Source: a virus (Duplodnaviria; Heunggongvirae; Uroviricota; Caudoviricetes). From it: DNA of 4,635 nucleotides. A model generated the notes under the pieces. That model searched no databases. It had not been told where the DNA came from and was given only the letters and a program-made list of their open reading frames with translations. The stretch lies in IMG/VR virus record IMGVR_UViG_2740892423_000025. The stretch is one strand, 5' to 3'. The position numbers and the translations under genes were made by a program. Of the stretch, positions 1 through 4,635 are shown piece after piece. Position 1 is the stretch's first letter; the number at the start of each line of letters is the position of its first letter.

Positions 1-387
1 GTGCAATATTTAAAAGGAACGCCATTACATCAGGCCCGATTTGCAGGCGTCAGGATTACATGTCCTTCAGAGCTTTCCTCTTCAATAGAGGAGTATTTTA
101 AAAATAATGGATTTGATATAGGTCGTGTGACTTGCTTCTCTGCGAATGCACCCGATATGCTTAGTGTTACGTTTGAGTTGCTCTCACGGGCGAAAAAATT
201 TGCAGAGGTTATTATGGGGTTATTGAACAGGAATGATGTCGAAGTTGAATTACACCTTTGTACCAGAGACGATGAGCCTAAAACTGCAAAGCTCAAATTA
301 AGAAACCTCAAAGATGTTGATGCGTGTGAGCGTCTGATTGATAAACTGGCTGCAGTGGTAATAACGCCAAAGAAAAATGAAGAATAA
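1..387 (+). CDS. hypothetical protein, probably 5'-truncated at the window edge (family not recognised)
   Basis: Frame open from base 1 to TAA at 385-387. The GTG at 1 cannot be tested as a true start because no upstream sequence is in the window. Followed 24 nt later by an intrinsic terminator. Amino-acid composition looks protein-like. Confidence 0.5.
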   Translation: MQYLKGTPLHQARFAGVRITCPSELSSSIEEYFKNNGFDIGRVTCFSANAPDMLSVTFELLSRAKKFAEVIMGLLNRNDVEVELHLCTRDDEPKTAKLKLRNLKDVDACERLIDKLAAVVITPKKNEE

Positions 388-533: not shown

Positions 534-677
534 TTACGGTTTACACTGTAAGAACGCCGCAAACTCCGCTCCCCAGAAGCTCATCCGTATCTCGCAGAGC
601 GAACCCTGCAACATCCAGATGATGAGGATTGCCGTCACGCACAGTGTGGTGATGGCGATTAGCGATTTTTGCGACAT
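534..677 (-). CDS. hok: Hok/Gef-family type I toxin (small membrane protein), 47 aa
   Basis: Not in the ORF track (too short). Reverse-strand translation ATG 677-675 to TAA 536-534 gives MSQKSLIAITTLCVTAILIIWMLQGSLCEIRMSFWGAEFAAFLQCKP. Hydrophobic N-terminal segment, then SLCEIR and E-x-AAF motifs as in plasmid R1 Hok (…[25 protein letters not shown], from memory). SD AAGGAG about 8 nt upstream of the ATG. Confidence 0.8.
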   Translation of the reverse strand: MSQKSLIAITTLCVTAILIIWMLQGSLCEIRMSFWGAEFAAFLQCKP

Positions 678-780
678 AGCACTTGCTCCTTTTTCGGAGA
701 GGCGCTAACCTACGACTTGCGAAGGTTGTATGGCTAGGGCCTCGGGTTAACGTTAAAGTTGACTCGGGGCCTTTCCACAT
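541..780 (-). CDS. mok-like overlapping reading frame (79 codons) that fully overlaps the hok-like ORF in another frame
   Basis: ATG at 780-778 preceded by GAAGG. In-frame stop just upstream (793-795) fixes the maximal extent. Ends at TAA 543-541, 7 nt beyond the hok stop, the arrangement described for mok/hok. The protein sequence itself is not diagnostic. Confidence 0.4.
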   Translation of the reverse strand: MWKGPESTLTLTRGPSHTTFASRRLAPLRKRSKCYVAKIANRHHHTVRDGNPHHLDVAGFALRDTDELLGSGVCGVLTV

Positions 781-809
781 CCGGCCTTCGGTTTACCCTC
801 CAGCCATCA

Positions 810-823
810 GCCGAAAGGCACCC
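810..823 (-). promoter_or_regulatory. tac-like 5' element of the toxin mRNA (partner of 469-483)
   Basis: Lies exactly at the transcription start predicted independently from the promoter at 830-859. Complementary to 469-483 (see that feature). Confidence 0.4.
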
Positions 824-829
824 GCGCGA

Positions 830-859
830 ATTCTAGCCTGGTTTTTTCCCTTGTTTCAA
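830..859 (-). promoter_or_regulatory. candidate sigma70 promoter of the hok-like transcript
   Basis: On the - strand: -35 TTGAAA (859-854), 18-nt spacer, -10 TAGAAT (835-830). Predicted start near 823, giving a transcript of about 410 nt to the terminator at about 415, similar to the roughly 400-nt hok mRNA of R1. Confidence 0.35.
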
Positions 860-863
860 TCCG

Positions 864-891
864 TTGAGGCCTCTCAGCCTTCTGATATAAA
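864..891 (+). promoter_or_regulatory. candidate strong sigma70 promoter with extended -10, driving the 898-964 small RNA
   Basis: -35 TTGAGG (864-869), 16-nt spacer, TG at 883-884, -10 TATAAA (886-891). Predicted start at G898 or A899. Confidence 0.45.
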
Positions 892-897
892 ATTCCC

Positions 898-964
898 GAC
901 CGCAGACATTATTCAGTCACGCATTTGATACATGCTTCCGCCGGCGTTCGCGCCGGTTTTTTTT
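898..964 (+). ncRNA. candidate ~67-nt small RNA, divergent from the hok-like gene (possible Sok-like antitoxin RNA; relation to the toxin unproven)
   Basis: Bounded by the promoter at 864-891 and the terminator at 941-964. No ORF with an SD inside. Possible small stem 921-924/932-935. Size matches type I antitoxin RNAs (Sok is about 64 nt). It does not overlap the predicted toxin mRNA (about 415-823). Confidence 0.4.
941..964 (+). terminator. rho-independent terminator
   Basis: Perfect 6-bp GC stem ccggcg (941-946) / cgccgg (951-956), tetraloop ttcg, followed by eight T (957-964). Confidence 0.65.
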
Positions 965-981
965 CGTCCTGTTGCTGCGTA

Positions 982-1239
982 GATCGTCATGTGCGATCGA
1001 GGCGCGGTATTGATCCTTTTTTCAGTTTAATTTTGACTCTTAATTTTACGCAGGCCGCGCCGCGTCTGGCTTCGTTGTTTGACGATTTTTTGATGCGATC
1101 CTTTCGCGATCGTGTCTTGTCCCACGTAAAGTATGAAAACTCTTTTAATATCATGCTGTTTTATTGCTACTGCCATTTGTGCGATCGTAAAAACCACTCT
1201 GAAAACTGCAAAAAATTTCAAAGCGTGAAATTTCAGATC
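982..1239. other. cluster of seven GATC (Dam) sites, three in the context GCGATCG; TGTGCGATCG occurs twice
   Basis: GATC at 982, 995, 1012, 1097, 1108, 1183 and 1236 (first base), counted by eye. 10-mer TGTGCGATCG at 990-999 and 1178-1187; CGCGATCG at 1105-1112. Confidence 0.5.
1213..1233. promoter_or_regulatory. AT-rich perfect palindrome AAATTTCA-N5-TGAAATTT, possible dimeric regulator site
   Basis: 1213-1220 aaatttca and 1226-1233 tgaaattt are exact reverse complements around a 5-nt spacer. GATC at 1236 lies 3 nt downstream. Confidence 0.3.
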
Positions 1240-1345
1240 TTCGCTTTTCCCTCAGTTGCTGCGCGGGCTGGCGGTCAGTTTTGCACGGCAGAAAACTGAA
1301 AAACTGTTTCGACACAAAACCCGCGGGTTGGAGGGGGTAGCGCGG

Positions 1346-1385
1346 TTTACGTCACCTCACGCTTTACGTCACACCGTTTACGCGG
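1346..1385. repeat. direct repeats of TTTACG(TCAC): two exact 10-mers and a third partial copy
   Basis: tttacgtcac at 1346-1355 and 1363-1372; tttacg again at 1377-1382. The third copy sits inside the inverted repeat cacaccg (1369-1375) / cggtgtg (1382-1388). Confidence 0.35.
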
Positions 1386-1442
1386 TGTGTGCATACAGCG
1401 CCGGAATGGCACGCAGAACGCATTAATCAGGTAGTGGATATG

Positions 1443-1469
1443 AAAAACGCACGGTCGGAACCGTGCGTT
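1443..1469 (-). terminator. rho-independent terminator of the - strand operon
   Basis: Stem 1448-1455 (cgcacggt) pairs with 1460-1467 (accgtgcg), loop cgga. On the - strand it is followed by TTTTT (plus 1443-1447 aaaaa). Lies 40 nt past the stop of the 565-aa gene. Confidence 0.6.
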
Positions 1470-1507: not shown

Positions 1508-3205
1508 TCAGGCGATAAGGTCGCCGTATTTTTCGCGCAGATTCGTGGCCTGCAGGGCATCTGCAGCAAGCTCGCTGCTGTTTGTTGGTGTGCCGGTGTT
1601 GCTGTGGGTATGGTTTGCAGTATGTGTGGCCAGCAACTGAACCAGATCCAGAATATCAATCAACAACGTCAGCAGATTAAGTCCGGATTTTTCCCGTGAG
1701 CCACTGCGACCAATAAATACTGTCGGGGCTGTAAACTCCAGACCACCGTCCGCCCGGCATGTTCTGCGGCCTCCCACGTTTTCAGTAAGGTCGCGCTCAA
1801 TCGTGGATGTCGCCCCTTTGAGTTTAGTCAGCAAATCCTGCGCTACCATCTGGATATGCTCACCGGCTGCGATCGCGTAATGGCCGGTAGTAAGGTGCTC
1901 TATTTGTCCTGCCATTAGCTTGCTGGTTCCCAGAACGCTGGTTATATCGTTTGCCTGTACTGTGGTTGTTCTGGTTGTTGTTGTGCGTTCCTCCTGATCG
2001 CTGTTAATGGTTCGCCGGGCTGAATGTTCTCTGATTTGCTGATCGGTTTCTCTGTGCCAGCTTCCGTCAGTCGTGACGCGCTGAAACACTTCTGCGCGCT
2101 GTTGCTGCAGCTGTTCGCCGGGCTTTACATCAGGCAGGTTATGGCCAGCGGGTAAGATTTGCCTGATAACGGGTTTGTCCGGACGTCCTTCAATGTTGGA
2201 TATTTCCACGATGGTGCCTGCCGGTGGGTAGGCAAAACATCCCGCCTCACTGCCAGCCATGGGGACGGGGAGCGGTACTGCCGGGTAAACGGGCGTGTCG
2301 CTTTTATCGTTGCCGTCCTCATCGAGCAGTTGCACATCGACGGCGTAGCGTGGGCGGAAACTGTCGGCCACATCGCCCAGGGTGGCGGGCTCCGTTGGCG
2401 CAATGACGCGCGCCAGCCGGGTATGTAGCGTACCGCTGGCCAGTTCCGGGAACTGTGTTTCCATTTGTCTGCGTAATGGTGATTTGGAAACAGGGTTACC
2501 CGTGGCGGTAAGGCGCTCCCATGTCAGGGTCATTTTCTCGTTGTTGAGGGCTACACGGGTAATGCGCCCGGCCGGTAGGTTCACGCCCGGTCGCACAGTT
2601 TCCATAAACATGATGTCGATGCTGTTTCCGCCGCTTTGCCCGAGCGTGTACTGTTGCGGAATATCCGGCATTGTAATACTGGCAAATCGTGAATCAGCTG
2701 CGCTTCCCACAAATACAGAACCGTCCGGCATAGGGTGCCAGACGTAATCGCTGATACTGAATGCTCGCCCCAGTTGGCTGAGCAGTTGTGCTCCGCTGCC
2801 GCTGTGGGTGATGTAGGGAGTTGGTATACTGGCATAATCCGCATCCGGAGTGATAAAAACGATACCGCTTTGTCGCCCCAGATTATCGAGTACCCTCCGC
2901 AACGTCGGGTGTTGCATGGAGCAAGGGAAATCAAAATCCAGCACAGCAGCCGCTTCACGAATAAAAAGGCGACGTGAGCCATTTTCAGCAGGTTGATCGC
3001 GCTCAATGTAGCCGGAGAAATAGCGCCATGCTTCACCGTCACGGCCGAGATCAATTTGTACCATTGCGCCGGCAAGGCTGTGTTCGGGTGACAGATTGTT
3101 AACAGAAATGAAGCCACGACCGGCAGCATTCAGGGTAAGAACAAGGCTTATATCGGCAATTTCCACCCGTTCGCCATTAATCATGCAGCGTTGTATCAAT
3201 TTCAT
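1508..3205 (-). CDS. baseplate hub/spike-like protein (gp5/gpV/VgrG-type OB-fold and His-rich tip behind a ~270-aa N-terminal domain), 565 aa
   Basis: Longest ORF in the window. SD GGAAGG 7-8 nt before ATG 3205-3203. Start overlaps the upstream stop (ATGA). Residues 327-347 PPAGTIVEISNIEGRPDKPVI match the P-x-x-G-x-x-V-x-I…G-x-x-D-x-P-V pattern I recall in P2 gpV and VgrG. C-terminal ATHTANHTHSNTG resembles the His-rich apex of P2 gpV (LHTHKH, from memory). Family call is by eye only. Confidence 0.7.
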   Translation of the reverse strand: MKLIQRCMINGERVEIADISLVLTLNAAGRGFISVNNLSPEHSLAGAMVQIDLGRDGEAWRYFSGYIERDQPAENGSRRLFIREAAAVLDFDFPCSMQHPTLRRVLDNLGRQSGIVFITPDADYASIPTPYITHSGSGAQLLSQLGRAFSISDYVWHPMPDGSVFVGSAADSRFASITMPDIPQQYTLGQSGGNSIDIMFMETVRPGVNLPAGRITRVALNNEKMTLTWERLTATGNPVSKSPLRRQMETQFPELASGTLHTRLARVIAPTEPATLGDVADSFRPRYAVDVQLLDEDGNDKSDTPVYPAVPLPVPMAGSEAGCFAYPPAGTIVEISNIEGRPDKPVIRQILPAGHNLPDVKPGEQLQQQRAEVFQRVTTDGSWHRETDQQIREHSARRTINSDQEERTTTTRTTTVQANDITSVLGTSKLMAGQIEHLTTGHYAIAAGEHIQMVAQDLLTKLKGATSTIERDLTENVGGRRTCRADGGLEFTAPTVFIGRSGSREKSGLNLLTLLIDILDLVQLLATHTANHTHSNTGTPTNSSELAADALQATNLREKYGDLIA

Positions 3206-3777
3206 GTTTTCCCTTCCTCTTTCACGCTCCCGATGCCAACAGCATCCAGACCAGAGCCAACGGCATCATTGATTTTTTTCCAGAACGAACTTTGCGTATT
3301 CATGCCTTTGTCTGGTGCCTGTTCGCTACCGTTCTGGGTCTGCTGTCTGGCGATGGTTTTCTGCGAACCGCTACGTGCAGACGCTTTCTCTGGCACGCTT
3401 AATTTTTCCCTGAGAGTAAAGGTGACCTGCCAGTGCATTTTTCCCTGTTGTTCCGTGGCATCAATGCCACCAGAAAATACCCCCTGTCGCATATTGATTG
3501 CCTTCGCGGTAGCGTTAGCAATGCGATATGTTTTTTTCGCGCCATTGCTTTCTGTTGCCTCCGCAAGCTGAAAAATACGGGTCAGAATAGCTTCATCGTT
3601 AAAATCAATAACCCCCGACACGCGCAGCTCTTTAGCCTTGCTTCCCTGCTGGGCGCTCGTGGTGCTGGTTGACTGTCCGGACATATCTTTGTCCGGTAGT
3701 TGCATGGTGGCGCTGACGGTGATGTTGCGCAGCAGAATGGCTTCCCCGTCAAGCGCAAGGACAATCATCTGGGTCAT
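3202..3777 (-). CDS. hypothetical protein, 191 aa (possible tail/baseplate accessory protein by context only)
   Basis: ATG 3777-3775 with SD AAGGGAAG about 7 nt upstream. Stop TGA 3204-3202 overlaps the next start. No family recognised. Confidence 0.65.
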   Translation of the reverse strand: MTQMIVLALDGEAILLRNITVSATMQLPDKDMSGQSTSTTSAQQGSKAKELRVSGVIDFNDEAILTRIFQLAEATESNGAKKTYRIANATAKAINMRQGVFSGGIDATEQQGKMHWQVTFTLREKLSVPEKASARSGSQKTIARQQTQNGSEQAPDKGMNTQSSFWKKINDAVGSGLDAVGIGSVKEEGKT

Positions 3778-4462
3778 GTAGTGCTTCCCTTAGTGATGAG
3801 AGATCATCGCCGACGAACAGCATCACAGCTGTAAAAACCCACTCAGGGTGTGGGATGTTTTTTTGTATCAGCACTGCGGCCTGGCTGAGGGCTCCCTTGT
3901 AGCAAAAGCGCCACACCGGGCAAAATTTTTGCCGGAGTGCGGCCTGCTGATCAGCGATTTCCTGTAGAGCTTTATCTCTCGCATTCATGAACTGATGCAG
4001 TGATGATGACAATGTTTCCGGTGATGTGGCGGCAGGAGTGGCTGCCTGTGCAATGGTTGCCGCCAGCGACATGCTGCGAGTGGTCTGTGTCGACAGCATT
4101 ATCGGTTCCGGAAGTGATGTTGCCGGTCTGGCGGGGATTTGCATTCTGCTGATGGCCAGTGAAAGCTGGCTGGAGATCATGCGGGACATTCGTCCCACCT
4201 CCGGCAACGGAAATGCGCCTGAAAATTGCCTGGCGAGTGATAAAAACTCGCCAGCAGAAGGAGCGCAAAATAACAGCGCCACAATGTCCTTTTCTGTGTT
4301 TTCTTTCAGATAGGGTAAAAGTGCAGATACAGCATTTTCGGGGCTGAGATAACGCCCCGATGGTTTGATGTTTCCGGTATTTTCTGACCATGGATGCAGG
4401 CAAACCACAGAGCATTTAATGTTCATGGCTGACGGGCGCAGAATTGCCTTTTCCCATTTCAT
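3749..4462 (-). CDS. hypothetical protein, 237 aa, with an S/T/A/P-rich central linker and Cys pairs (C-x3-C N-terminal; C-x5-C and C-x-C C-terminal)
   Basis: ATG 4462-4460 with SD GGAGAG. Start overlaps the stop of the upstream partial gene (ATGA). 3' end overlaps the 191-aa gene start by 29 nt. No family recognised. Confidence 0.6.
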   Translation of the reverse strand: MKWEKAILRPSAMNIKCSVVCLHPWSENTGNIKPSGRYLSPENAVSALLPYLKENTEKDIVALLFCAPSAGEFLSLARQFSGAFPLPEVGRMSRMISSQLSLAISRMQIPARPATSLPEPIMLSTQTTRSMSLAATIAQAATPAATSPETLSSSLHQFMNARDKALQEIADQQAALRQKFCPVWRFCYKGALSQAAVLIQKNIPHPEWVFTAVMLFVGDDLSSLREALHDPDDCPCA

Positions 4463-4635
4463 TCTGACTCTCCAGCCTGAAAAGCGCGGATGTCGGCAAG
4501 ATTATTAAGGCTATCCAGCACGTCCTTCATCTGTCGCTGACGGCGATAAATCTCGTCATTGCGATCGACCTGCGCCTGCGCCATTGCTGCCGCCAGTTCT
4601 TCCAGTTCCGGCATCGACAGTTTCACCTGTTGATT
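4459..4635 (-). CDS. hypothetical protein, 3' fragment (N-terminus beyond the window), helical-looking C-terminus
   Basis: Frame open from the window edge to TGA 4461-4459. Translation …NQQVKLSMPELEELAAAMAQAQVDRNDEIYRRQRQMKDVLDSLNNLADIRAFQAGESE. Stop overlaps the ATG of the 237-aa gene. Confidence 0.5.
   Translation of the reverse strand, partial: NQQVKLSMPELEELAAAMAQAQVDRNDEIYRRQRQMKDVLDSLNNLADIRAFQAGESE

Follow-up and report, generated by a model that had tools for sequence, protein, structure and literature searches.

The minus strand of a 4,635-nucleotide stretch of viral DNA (IMG/VR record IMGVR_UViG_2740892423_000025; the whole stretch is called the window below) encodes a 565-residue protein that had been predicted to combine a baseplate hub domain with an OB-fold spike, and to be the puncturing device of a reduced or uncharacterised contractile or secretion-related module. 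The question raised by this locus is whether the protein serves such a module or the tail of a phage. On the evidence set out below, the gene very probably supplies an HP1-like temperate Escherichia coli prophage of the Peduoviridae with the central hub-spike of its contractile tail, a protein that unites gpD and gpV in one chain. The gene, the parts of its product and the terminator behind it are as follows.

1508..3205, minus strand: fused central hub-spike protein of 565 residues (orthologue of HP1 orf35 and K139 orf39; PHROG 2258), from the open reading frame (ORF), the PHROG match, the identity to HP1 and Foldseek
2516..3205, minus strand: residues 1-230, compact baseplate hub domain of the gp27/gp44/gpD type, from the predicted fold
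2480..2515, minus strand: residues ~231-242, hub-spike fusion linker, from the ends and starts of standalone relatives and a drop in the predicted local distance difference test score (pLDDT)
2156..2479, minus strand: residues ~243-350, N-terminal spike helix and OB fold of the gp5/gpV/VgrG type, including the motif at residues 327-347
1706..2155, minus strand: residues ~351-500, predicted triple-stranded beta-helix shaft, from weak profile matches and indel lengths
1511..1705, minus strand: residues ~501-565, tip domain with helix 511-530, HxH loop (H532, H534) and helix 543-560, from the AlphaFold2 model and conservation
1446..1469, minus strand: intrinsic terminator of the late (tail) operon, a 10-bp stem and T-run in a position equivalent to that of T39 in K139

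Family, operon and prophage context

An ORF scan of the window places the gene, which has an ATG start, at the end of a run of translationally coupled minus-strand genes consisting of the 3' end of a DUF4376 gene and genes for proteins of 237, 191 and 565 residues. Its start overlaps the stop of the 191-residue gene (ATGA) and is preceded by GAGGAAGGG. A GC-rich stem of 10 bp (1469..1446 on the minus strand) followed by UUUUU lies 38 nt past its stop codon, with a folding energy of -15.8 kcal/mol (z = -5.9 against shuffled sequences). The gene is the last of its operon and stands directly before a strong intrinsic terminator, as had been predicted.

The protein matches the PHROG family phrog_2258 ('baseplate protein') from end to end (E 4e-233, query residues 1-565 to positions 1-544 of 544), and its C-terminal 320 residues additionally match PHROG 4011. 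Relatives were found by tblastn in 75 records of deposited phage genomes, and every record checked belongs to the HP1-like group of the P2 family (Peduoviridae); they include orf35 of HP1 and HP2, orf39 of K139, kp45 of Kappa, and genes of phiO18P, ESSI-2 and the Salmonella phages SW5 and SI7. Identity is 41.6% to HP1 orf35 (UniProt P51739) and 33.9% to K139 orf39, both over approximately the first 450 residues in tblastn, and HP1 orf35 aligns with the 565-residue protein along its whole length, HTH tip included. The last three late genes of HP1 (orf33, orf34 and orf35, encoding 258, 187 and 533 residues) are syntenic with the genes of the window for 237, 191 and 565 residues, and in K139 the order orf37-orf38-orf39 is followed by an annotated rho-independent terminator, T39. 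The orf34-like gene is likewise present in 75 phage records, with a genus breakdown identical to that of the 75 records that carry the hub-spike. Full-length homology and synteny identify the gene as the orthologue of HP1 orf35 and K139 orf39. Fusion of hub and spike has been recorded before for HP1: Table S1 of PMC10612066 gives the gpD and gpV homologues as fused in HP1, and assigns gp48 of phage ACA1 to P2 gpD and the N-terminal half of HP1 orf35 (P51739N), and ACA1 gp49 to gpV (3QR8_A) and the C-terminal half of HP1 orf35 (P51739C). The E. coli gene is a further member of this group.

Chromosomal segments of 41 complete E. coli genomes match the window at 92-95% identity across at least 80% of its length. 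In contigs that encode an identical 565-residue protein, the gene order is chaperone, tape measure, DUF2590, Baseplate_J, gpI-like protein, two fibres, Tfa, DUF4376, 237-residue protein, HP1_ORF34 and 565-residue protein, and TAC and DUF6890 genes are also present. The DUF4376 gene that is partial in the window is a full gene of 190 residues in two of these contigs (L005 and L006) and in a prophage of E. coli that is 95% identical. Upstream of the hub-spike gene, this prophage carries genes for DUF4376, two tail fibres and an assembly protein, the gpI-like protein, Baseplate_J, DUF2590, the tape measure and chaperones; then for endolysin, holin, tube, sheath, tail completion and terminator proteins and head completion; then for the terminase small subunit, a P2-family major capsid protein, a GPO scaffold, the terminase large subunit, the portal and an Ogr-type regulator. 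PHROG scans of the prophage confirm the sheath (phrog_907), tube (phrog_1182), wedge, tape measure and tail terminator. The prophage encodes a separate M15 peptidase, and neither it nor the contigs with the identical protein have a further gene annotated as gpD- or gpV-like.

The region upstream of position 4635, where tail genes were to be sought if the prediction of a puncturing device held, thus contains them: tape measure, wedge and fibre genes in the contigs with the identical protein, and sheath and tube genes in the 95%-identical prophage. The proposed reduced or secretion-related module had been argued from a supposed departure from P2- and Mu-type tail modules, in which wedge or fibre genes were said to follow. 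It is correct that no wedge or fibre genes lie downstream, but gene D for the hub is likewise the last structural gene of its operon in P2. Because only the small regulator gene ogr and a terminator follow gene D, a hub gene at the operon end is nothing unusual in this virus family; because the wedge and fibre genes are not absent but stand upstream in the same operon, the module reading is unsupported and is contradicted by the full phage context. Downstream of the identical protein there is only a hok-type gene, in some contigs also a gene for 128 residues, and then host genes (serS in two contigs, flk/DUF4875 in two others). The 565-residue gene closes the structural operon of a complete temperate myovirus, near the prophage-host junction.

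Could the protein instead be the spike of a non-phage contractile system, namely a type VI secretion system (T6SS), an extracellular contractile injection system (eCIS) or an R-type tailocin? The fused layout is a hallmark of T6SS and eCIS, the best full-length fold matches (below) are the fused spikes of these systems, and the NCBIfam VgrG models TIGR01646 and TIGR03361 weakly match residues 314-363. However, these matches score 19.4 and 16.1 bits, far below the cutoffs of 121.8 and 186.35; the 95%-identical prophage has genes for capsid, scaffold, terminase, portal, head completion, holin and endolysin; tape measure and tail fibre genes neighbour the identical protein; there are no genes for Hcp, TssB/C or an Afp-type ATPase; and the plaque-forming isolates HP1, K139, phiO18P and ESSI-2 carry orthologues. 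Membership in a T6SS, eCIS or tailocin was rejected on the phage head and lysis genes at the locus and the unreached VgrG cutoffs, and is highly improbable.

A hub-spike gene in a phage lineage might still be a relic, left in a decaying prophage that makes no working spike. No phage record matches the gene at the DNA level and the nearest isolated phages are only about 47-50% identical as protein; furthermore, one related prophage adjoins a truncated topB. Against decay, the ORF is unbroken and of full family length, every family-invariant residue is kept, the coupled starts and the terminator are preserved, and the cluster at 97% identity has 956 member sequences. The identical protein occurs at no fewer than two chromosomal sites (serS and flk/DUF4875), and the 95% relative at topB; the same protein at different sites points to recent mobility. 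The relic explanation is highly improbable.

The truncated topB adjoins the 95%-identical prophage itself. Together with the serS and flk/DUF4875 flanks, it points either to the use of several integration sites by this phage lineage or to recombination at the prophage ends. Beyond the portal/Ogr end of the same prophage there are genes for ParM and for plasmid partitioning and stability (L001:43529-44591), which hint at a phage-plasmid-like maintenance module in the HP1-like lineage.

Hub, spike and tip

An exhaustive HMMER search of 1.84 billion representative sequences found 601 relatives of the 565-residue protein. Many of them are standalone hubs of approximately 225-245 residues, which align to residues 1-230, and many others are standalone spikes of approximately 300-400 residues, which align to residues 244-565 starting with their own N-terminus. 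On the query, the hubs stop near residue 230 and the spikes begin near 242-244, with a drop in pLDDT between the two. Judged from these alignments, residues 231-242 are a linker joining what are two genes elsewhere. The split arrangement was verified in deposited phages (gp40/gp41 of Canoevirus, gp48/gp49 of ACA1); in Pseudomonas phage phi3 the spike carries the annotation 'Gp5 domain-containing', and the ORF for the hub (L009:1501-2190) has none.

In an AlphaFold2 model built on 26 homologues, residues 1-250 have pLDDT of 75-94 and the OB region is of moderate confidence. Foldseek matches this model best to fused hub-spikes in the PDB (Pvc8, AlgoCIS, AnaCIS, VgrGs and Afp8, E 1e-16 to 1e-13) and next to proteins that are hubs only (PhiTE, Mu gp44, MuSo2, P1, E217, pyocin R2 and T4 gp27, E 1e-11 to 1e-9). 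By their predicted fold, residues 1-230 are confirmed as a hub domain of the gp27/Mu gp44/P2 gpD type. The original prediction of a hub-like domain holds at the level of fold, though not of sequence, and the boundary lies at about residue 230-242 rather than at 270. A different assignment would make only the C-terminal part a spike protein, with the N-terminal 230 residues an accessory or adaptor domain and the hub encoded by another gene, such as the orf33-like gene for 237 residues. The absence of any sequence link between residues 1-230 and a hub family speaks for it, as do the size of the domain, which is about 150 residues shorter than P2 gpD (387 residues), and the availability of the orf33-like protein, which has no assigned role. 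With the hub-only proteins among the fold matches of this domain, such a division of labour is very improbable, and residues 1-230 are taken as the hub in what follows.

The Pfam model Phage_base_V matches residues 311-347 of the protein at E 0.021 (15.6 bits, cutoff 23.8). Among 25 standalone-spike relatives, the same model matches 15 (best E 2.8e-6), DUF2345 matches four, and Gp5_trimer_C and gpV Apex match two each. A profile of the standalone spikes matches VgrG chains at E 1.7e-7 across the motif at residues 327-347, and the match continues into the beta-helix (VgrG, T4 gp5). The OB-fold signature that had been read in residues 327-347 is therefore real, weak in the single protein and significant in its family; as regards the profile searches that had been proposed, Phage_GPD gives nothing, and Phage_base_V and VgrG stay below cutoff for the single protein although most of the spike relatives match Phage_base_V. 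Homology to OB-fold spikes is thus supported by profile comparison at the level of the family. The model predicts the spike helix at residues 243-256, and the profile comparisons place the OB fold at approximately 260-350. No enzymatic domain was found in the protein by Pfam search.

Residues ~350-500 are probably a beta-helix. Gp5_trimer_C weakly matches residues 393-442 (E 0.13). Indels among relatives in this shaft measure 8, 16 or 24 residues (approximately 1706..1840 of the window on the minus strand, residues ~456-500), and blocks of these sizes suit a triple beta-helix built of octad repeats, as in T4 gp5.

The tip reads H528-T-A-N-H532-T-H534, and H532 and H534 are invariant in 26 full-length relatives and 35 tip sequences, so that the histidine-rich tip noticed at the outset is borne out. 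Two of the 35 tip relatives match Pfam gpV Apex (best E 1.8e-5). The helices at residues 511-530 and 543-560 are modelled with pLDDT of 74-84, and a profile of the tip domain (56 positions) has no match among PDB sequences even at E 10. A comparable HxH motif is held by the C-terminus of P2 gpV (LHTHKHPG), where the HxH motifs coordinate an iron ion at the apex (PDB 3QR8). A conserved HxH motif of the gpV type is thus present at the C-terminal tip of the 565-residue protein, where it would bind metal. The closest described architecture is that of the Pam3 spike gp20 (PMC9942802): a helix at the N-terminus is followed by an OB fold and a short beta-helix, and two helices at the C-terminus make up a distal bundle. 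The predicted helix-HxH-helix tip is the only element of the protein that seems even mildly novel. In a trimer, the three hairpins (residues ~511-560) may pack their six helices into a distal bundle, with the three HxH motifs in the loops turned towards a single metal ion; if so, the tip would combine a helical-bundle tip of the Pam3 type with a metal apex of the gpV type. That the tip is a structurally undescribed variant, and that the clade with its fused and split genes is a model for hub-spike gene fusion or decay, is as a joint reading tentative and rather doubtful.

Vibrio phage 1.202.O has a split-gene relative (gp41-gp42, L002:3666-4561), in which a 231-residue spike that lacks the helix-HxH-helix tip is followed by a separate gp42 of 65 residues; another small protein may supply the tip in that lineage.

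Several points weigh against the identification of the protein as a phage hub-spike. The hub domain has no similarity in sequence to Phage_GPD, P2 gpD or any PDB chain: Phage_GPD of Pfam matches neither the 565-residue protein nor 20 standalone-hub relatives, the hhalign comparisons with P2 gpD (E 0.11) and gpV are all insignificant (E 0.11-0.29 overall), and a profile of the standalone hubs finds nothing relevant among PDB sequences and Pfam. The assignment of the hub half therefore rests on its predicted fold (pLDDT 75-94) and its position. Taken alone, the protein is under the curated cutoffs of Phage_base_V, Gp5_trimer_C and the NCBIfam VgrG models. The shaft is modelled at pLDDT below 50 in the AlphaFold2 monomer, poorly over residues 353-490, which is as expected for a shaft that folds only as a trimer. 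The sheath, tube and capsid genes were seen in the 95%-identical relative and not in the window's own contig beyond 10 kb.

A mechanism can be drawn from established knowledge of contractile tails. Three copies of the protein would assemble as a trimer, in which the hub domains (residues 1-230) would form a ring adapting the three-fold spike to the six-fold tube and tube-initiator, under the tape measure. The ring would nucleate the baseplate with the orf33-like and orf34-like products and the wedges (DUF2590/gpW-like, gpJ and gpI), and the fibres would assemble around it. The OB-fold domains (residues ~260-350) would plug the hub, the next ~150 residues would intertwine into a beta-helical shaft, and the C-terminal helix-loop-helix units would close the tip, where a metal ion is probably bound, as in P2 gpV, by the six histidines of three HxH motifs. 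Contraction of the sheath would then drive the metal-stiffened tip and trimer through the outer membrane ahead of the tube.

The significance of the gene lies mainly in annotation, and there is little in it to surprise a phage structural biologist. Among the matching E. coli genomes listed, RefSeq labels the protein 'hypothetical' in most; it can be named with confidence as the baseplate hub-spike (cell-puncturing protein) of an HP1-like prophage. The compact hub of ~230 residues and the self-capped HxH tip could interest engineers of minimal contractile injection systems.

Neighbouring genes and the downstream region

Upstream of the hub-spike gene, the window contains three coupled genes.

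3202..3777, minus strand: HP1 orf34-family baseplate complex protein of 191 residues, coupled upstream neighbour (PF25759; phrog_1398)
3749..4462, minus strand: HP1 orf33-family protein of 237 residues (phrog_1677, phrog_31292; synteny with HP1 orf33)
4459..4635, minus strand: 3' end of a DUF4376/tail-fibre-associated gene, cut by the window edge (phrog_7703; phrog_1141, tail fibre protein)

The 191-residue protein belongs to PF25759, 'Bacteriophage HP1 ORF34 baseplate complex protein' (E 8e-54). The orf34-like gene is labelled 'nucleoid DNA-binding protein' in phi3 and 'adenine glycosylase' in several Vibrio phages, which are likely misannotations. It is syntenic with P2 gpU, and the authors of the ACA1 study call the homology to gpU uncertain (PMC10612066); the orf34-like protein is possibly the gpU counterpart. 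ACA1 gp46, a homologue of the orf33-like protein, was detected in virions by mass spectrometry (PMC10612066). Both upstream proteins, the orf33-like and the orf34-like, probably belong to the inner baseplate.

The 237-residue protein is fast-diverging, with only 32 relatives in a word-indexed search. Its AlphaFold2 model (mean pLDDT 60) is alpha/beta with long helices and has no Foldseek match at E <= 0.001. A role as tube-initiator by analogy with Pam3 gp17 and XM1 gp11 was considered and is unsupported, given the low-confidence model and the missing fold match. Searches of PDB sequences with the orf34-like and orf33-like proteins returned no meaningful match, and a match to NDUEG3 was discarded as spurious.

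Downstream of the tail operon is a hok/sok-type toxin-antitoxin locus (534..823, minus strand), with an ORF for a 47-residue Hok/Gef protein at 534..677 and a match to the Rfam sok model at 664..823 (41.9 bits, under the gathering score of 59; E 3.6e-7). Stx-converting phages, P88, Xuanwuvirus and others have copies of it at 83-88% identity, and by these comparisons it resembles a mobile cargo module carried at the end of the prophage. The ORF at 1..387 on the plus strand encodes 128 residues, matches phrog_14142 (unknown function; E 5e-52) and is called a 'RuvC family protein' in RefSeq for a 95%-identical genome; in two contigs (L006 and L008) it is the last gene before the host serS. The approximately 770 nt between the operon terminator and hok (~680..1445) have no annotated gene, and a 650-nt spacer within the window (query 850-1500) has no DNA match in phage genomes, even in distant mode. 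This stretch contains a GC-rich hairpin (940..957) flanked by a T-run on the plus strand and by an A-run opposite, possibly a terminator that works in both directions.

Comparison with known hub-spike systems

In P2 the same roles, in the same virus family, are divided between gpD (387 residues) and gpV (211 residues; PDB 3QR8), two proteins encoded in two operons and without significant sequence similarity to the 565-residue protein. With its OB fold, beta-helix and iron-binding HxH apex, gpV is the counterpart of the spike half. Compared with P2, the hub is approximately 150 residues shorter and the spike approximately 110 residues longer, and the tip is a predicted helical hairpin, whereas that of gpV is a short beta apex. 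Hub and spike are also separate in the minimal myophage baseplate cores of Pam3 (gp17-gp18-gp19-gp20; 7YFZ) and Vibrio phage XM1 (gp11-gp12-gp13-gp14), and no relationship to either core was detected at the level of sequence.

A single chain that combines a gp27-like hub, an OB fold and a beta-helix is shared with the eCIS and T6SS spikes Pvc8 (6J0M, 9QGM), Afp8 (6RBK), Alg8 of AlgoCIS (7AEF) and VgrG1 (4MTK, 4UHV). The VgrG-like layout, with hub, OB-fold spike and histidine-rich tip (of the metal-type HxH kind) in one chain, had been recognized correctly in the original prediction, as had the small size: at 565 residues the protein is shorter than T6SS VgrG proteins (616-674 residues), but typical of the eCIS proteins Afp8 and Pvc8 (529-538 residues). 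These systems are not phages, however, and their spikes are only 9-14% identical to the 565-residue protein; a PAAR or other separate tip protein usually serves as their cap, whereas the 565-residue protein has its own HxH tip.

The closest systems are HP1 orf35 and K139 orf39, which share the orf33-34-35 synteny, the position as last late gene before a terminator and the fused gpD-gpV layout, and in HP1 also the HxH tip (ATHTH). Compared with HP1 orf35, the shaft has 22 more residues and the tip is 32 residues longer overall. The E. coli gene differs from both in belonging to an enterobacterial prophage lineage that has no representative among deposited phages, and in the hok/sok locus and 128-residue gene carried as downstream cargo between it and the prophage end. 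The HP1-like clade, with fused and split genes in one family, could model how spikes of the VgrG/Afp8 type arose from two-gene pairs or decay into them, and the 565-residue protein shows that hub-spikes of a single chain also exist outside T6SS and eCIS, with fusion and fission of hub and spike occurring within one phage family.

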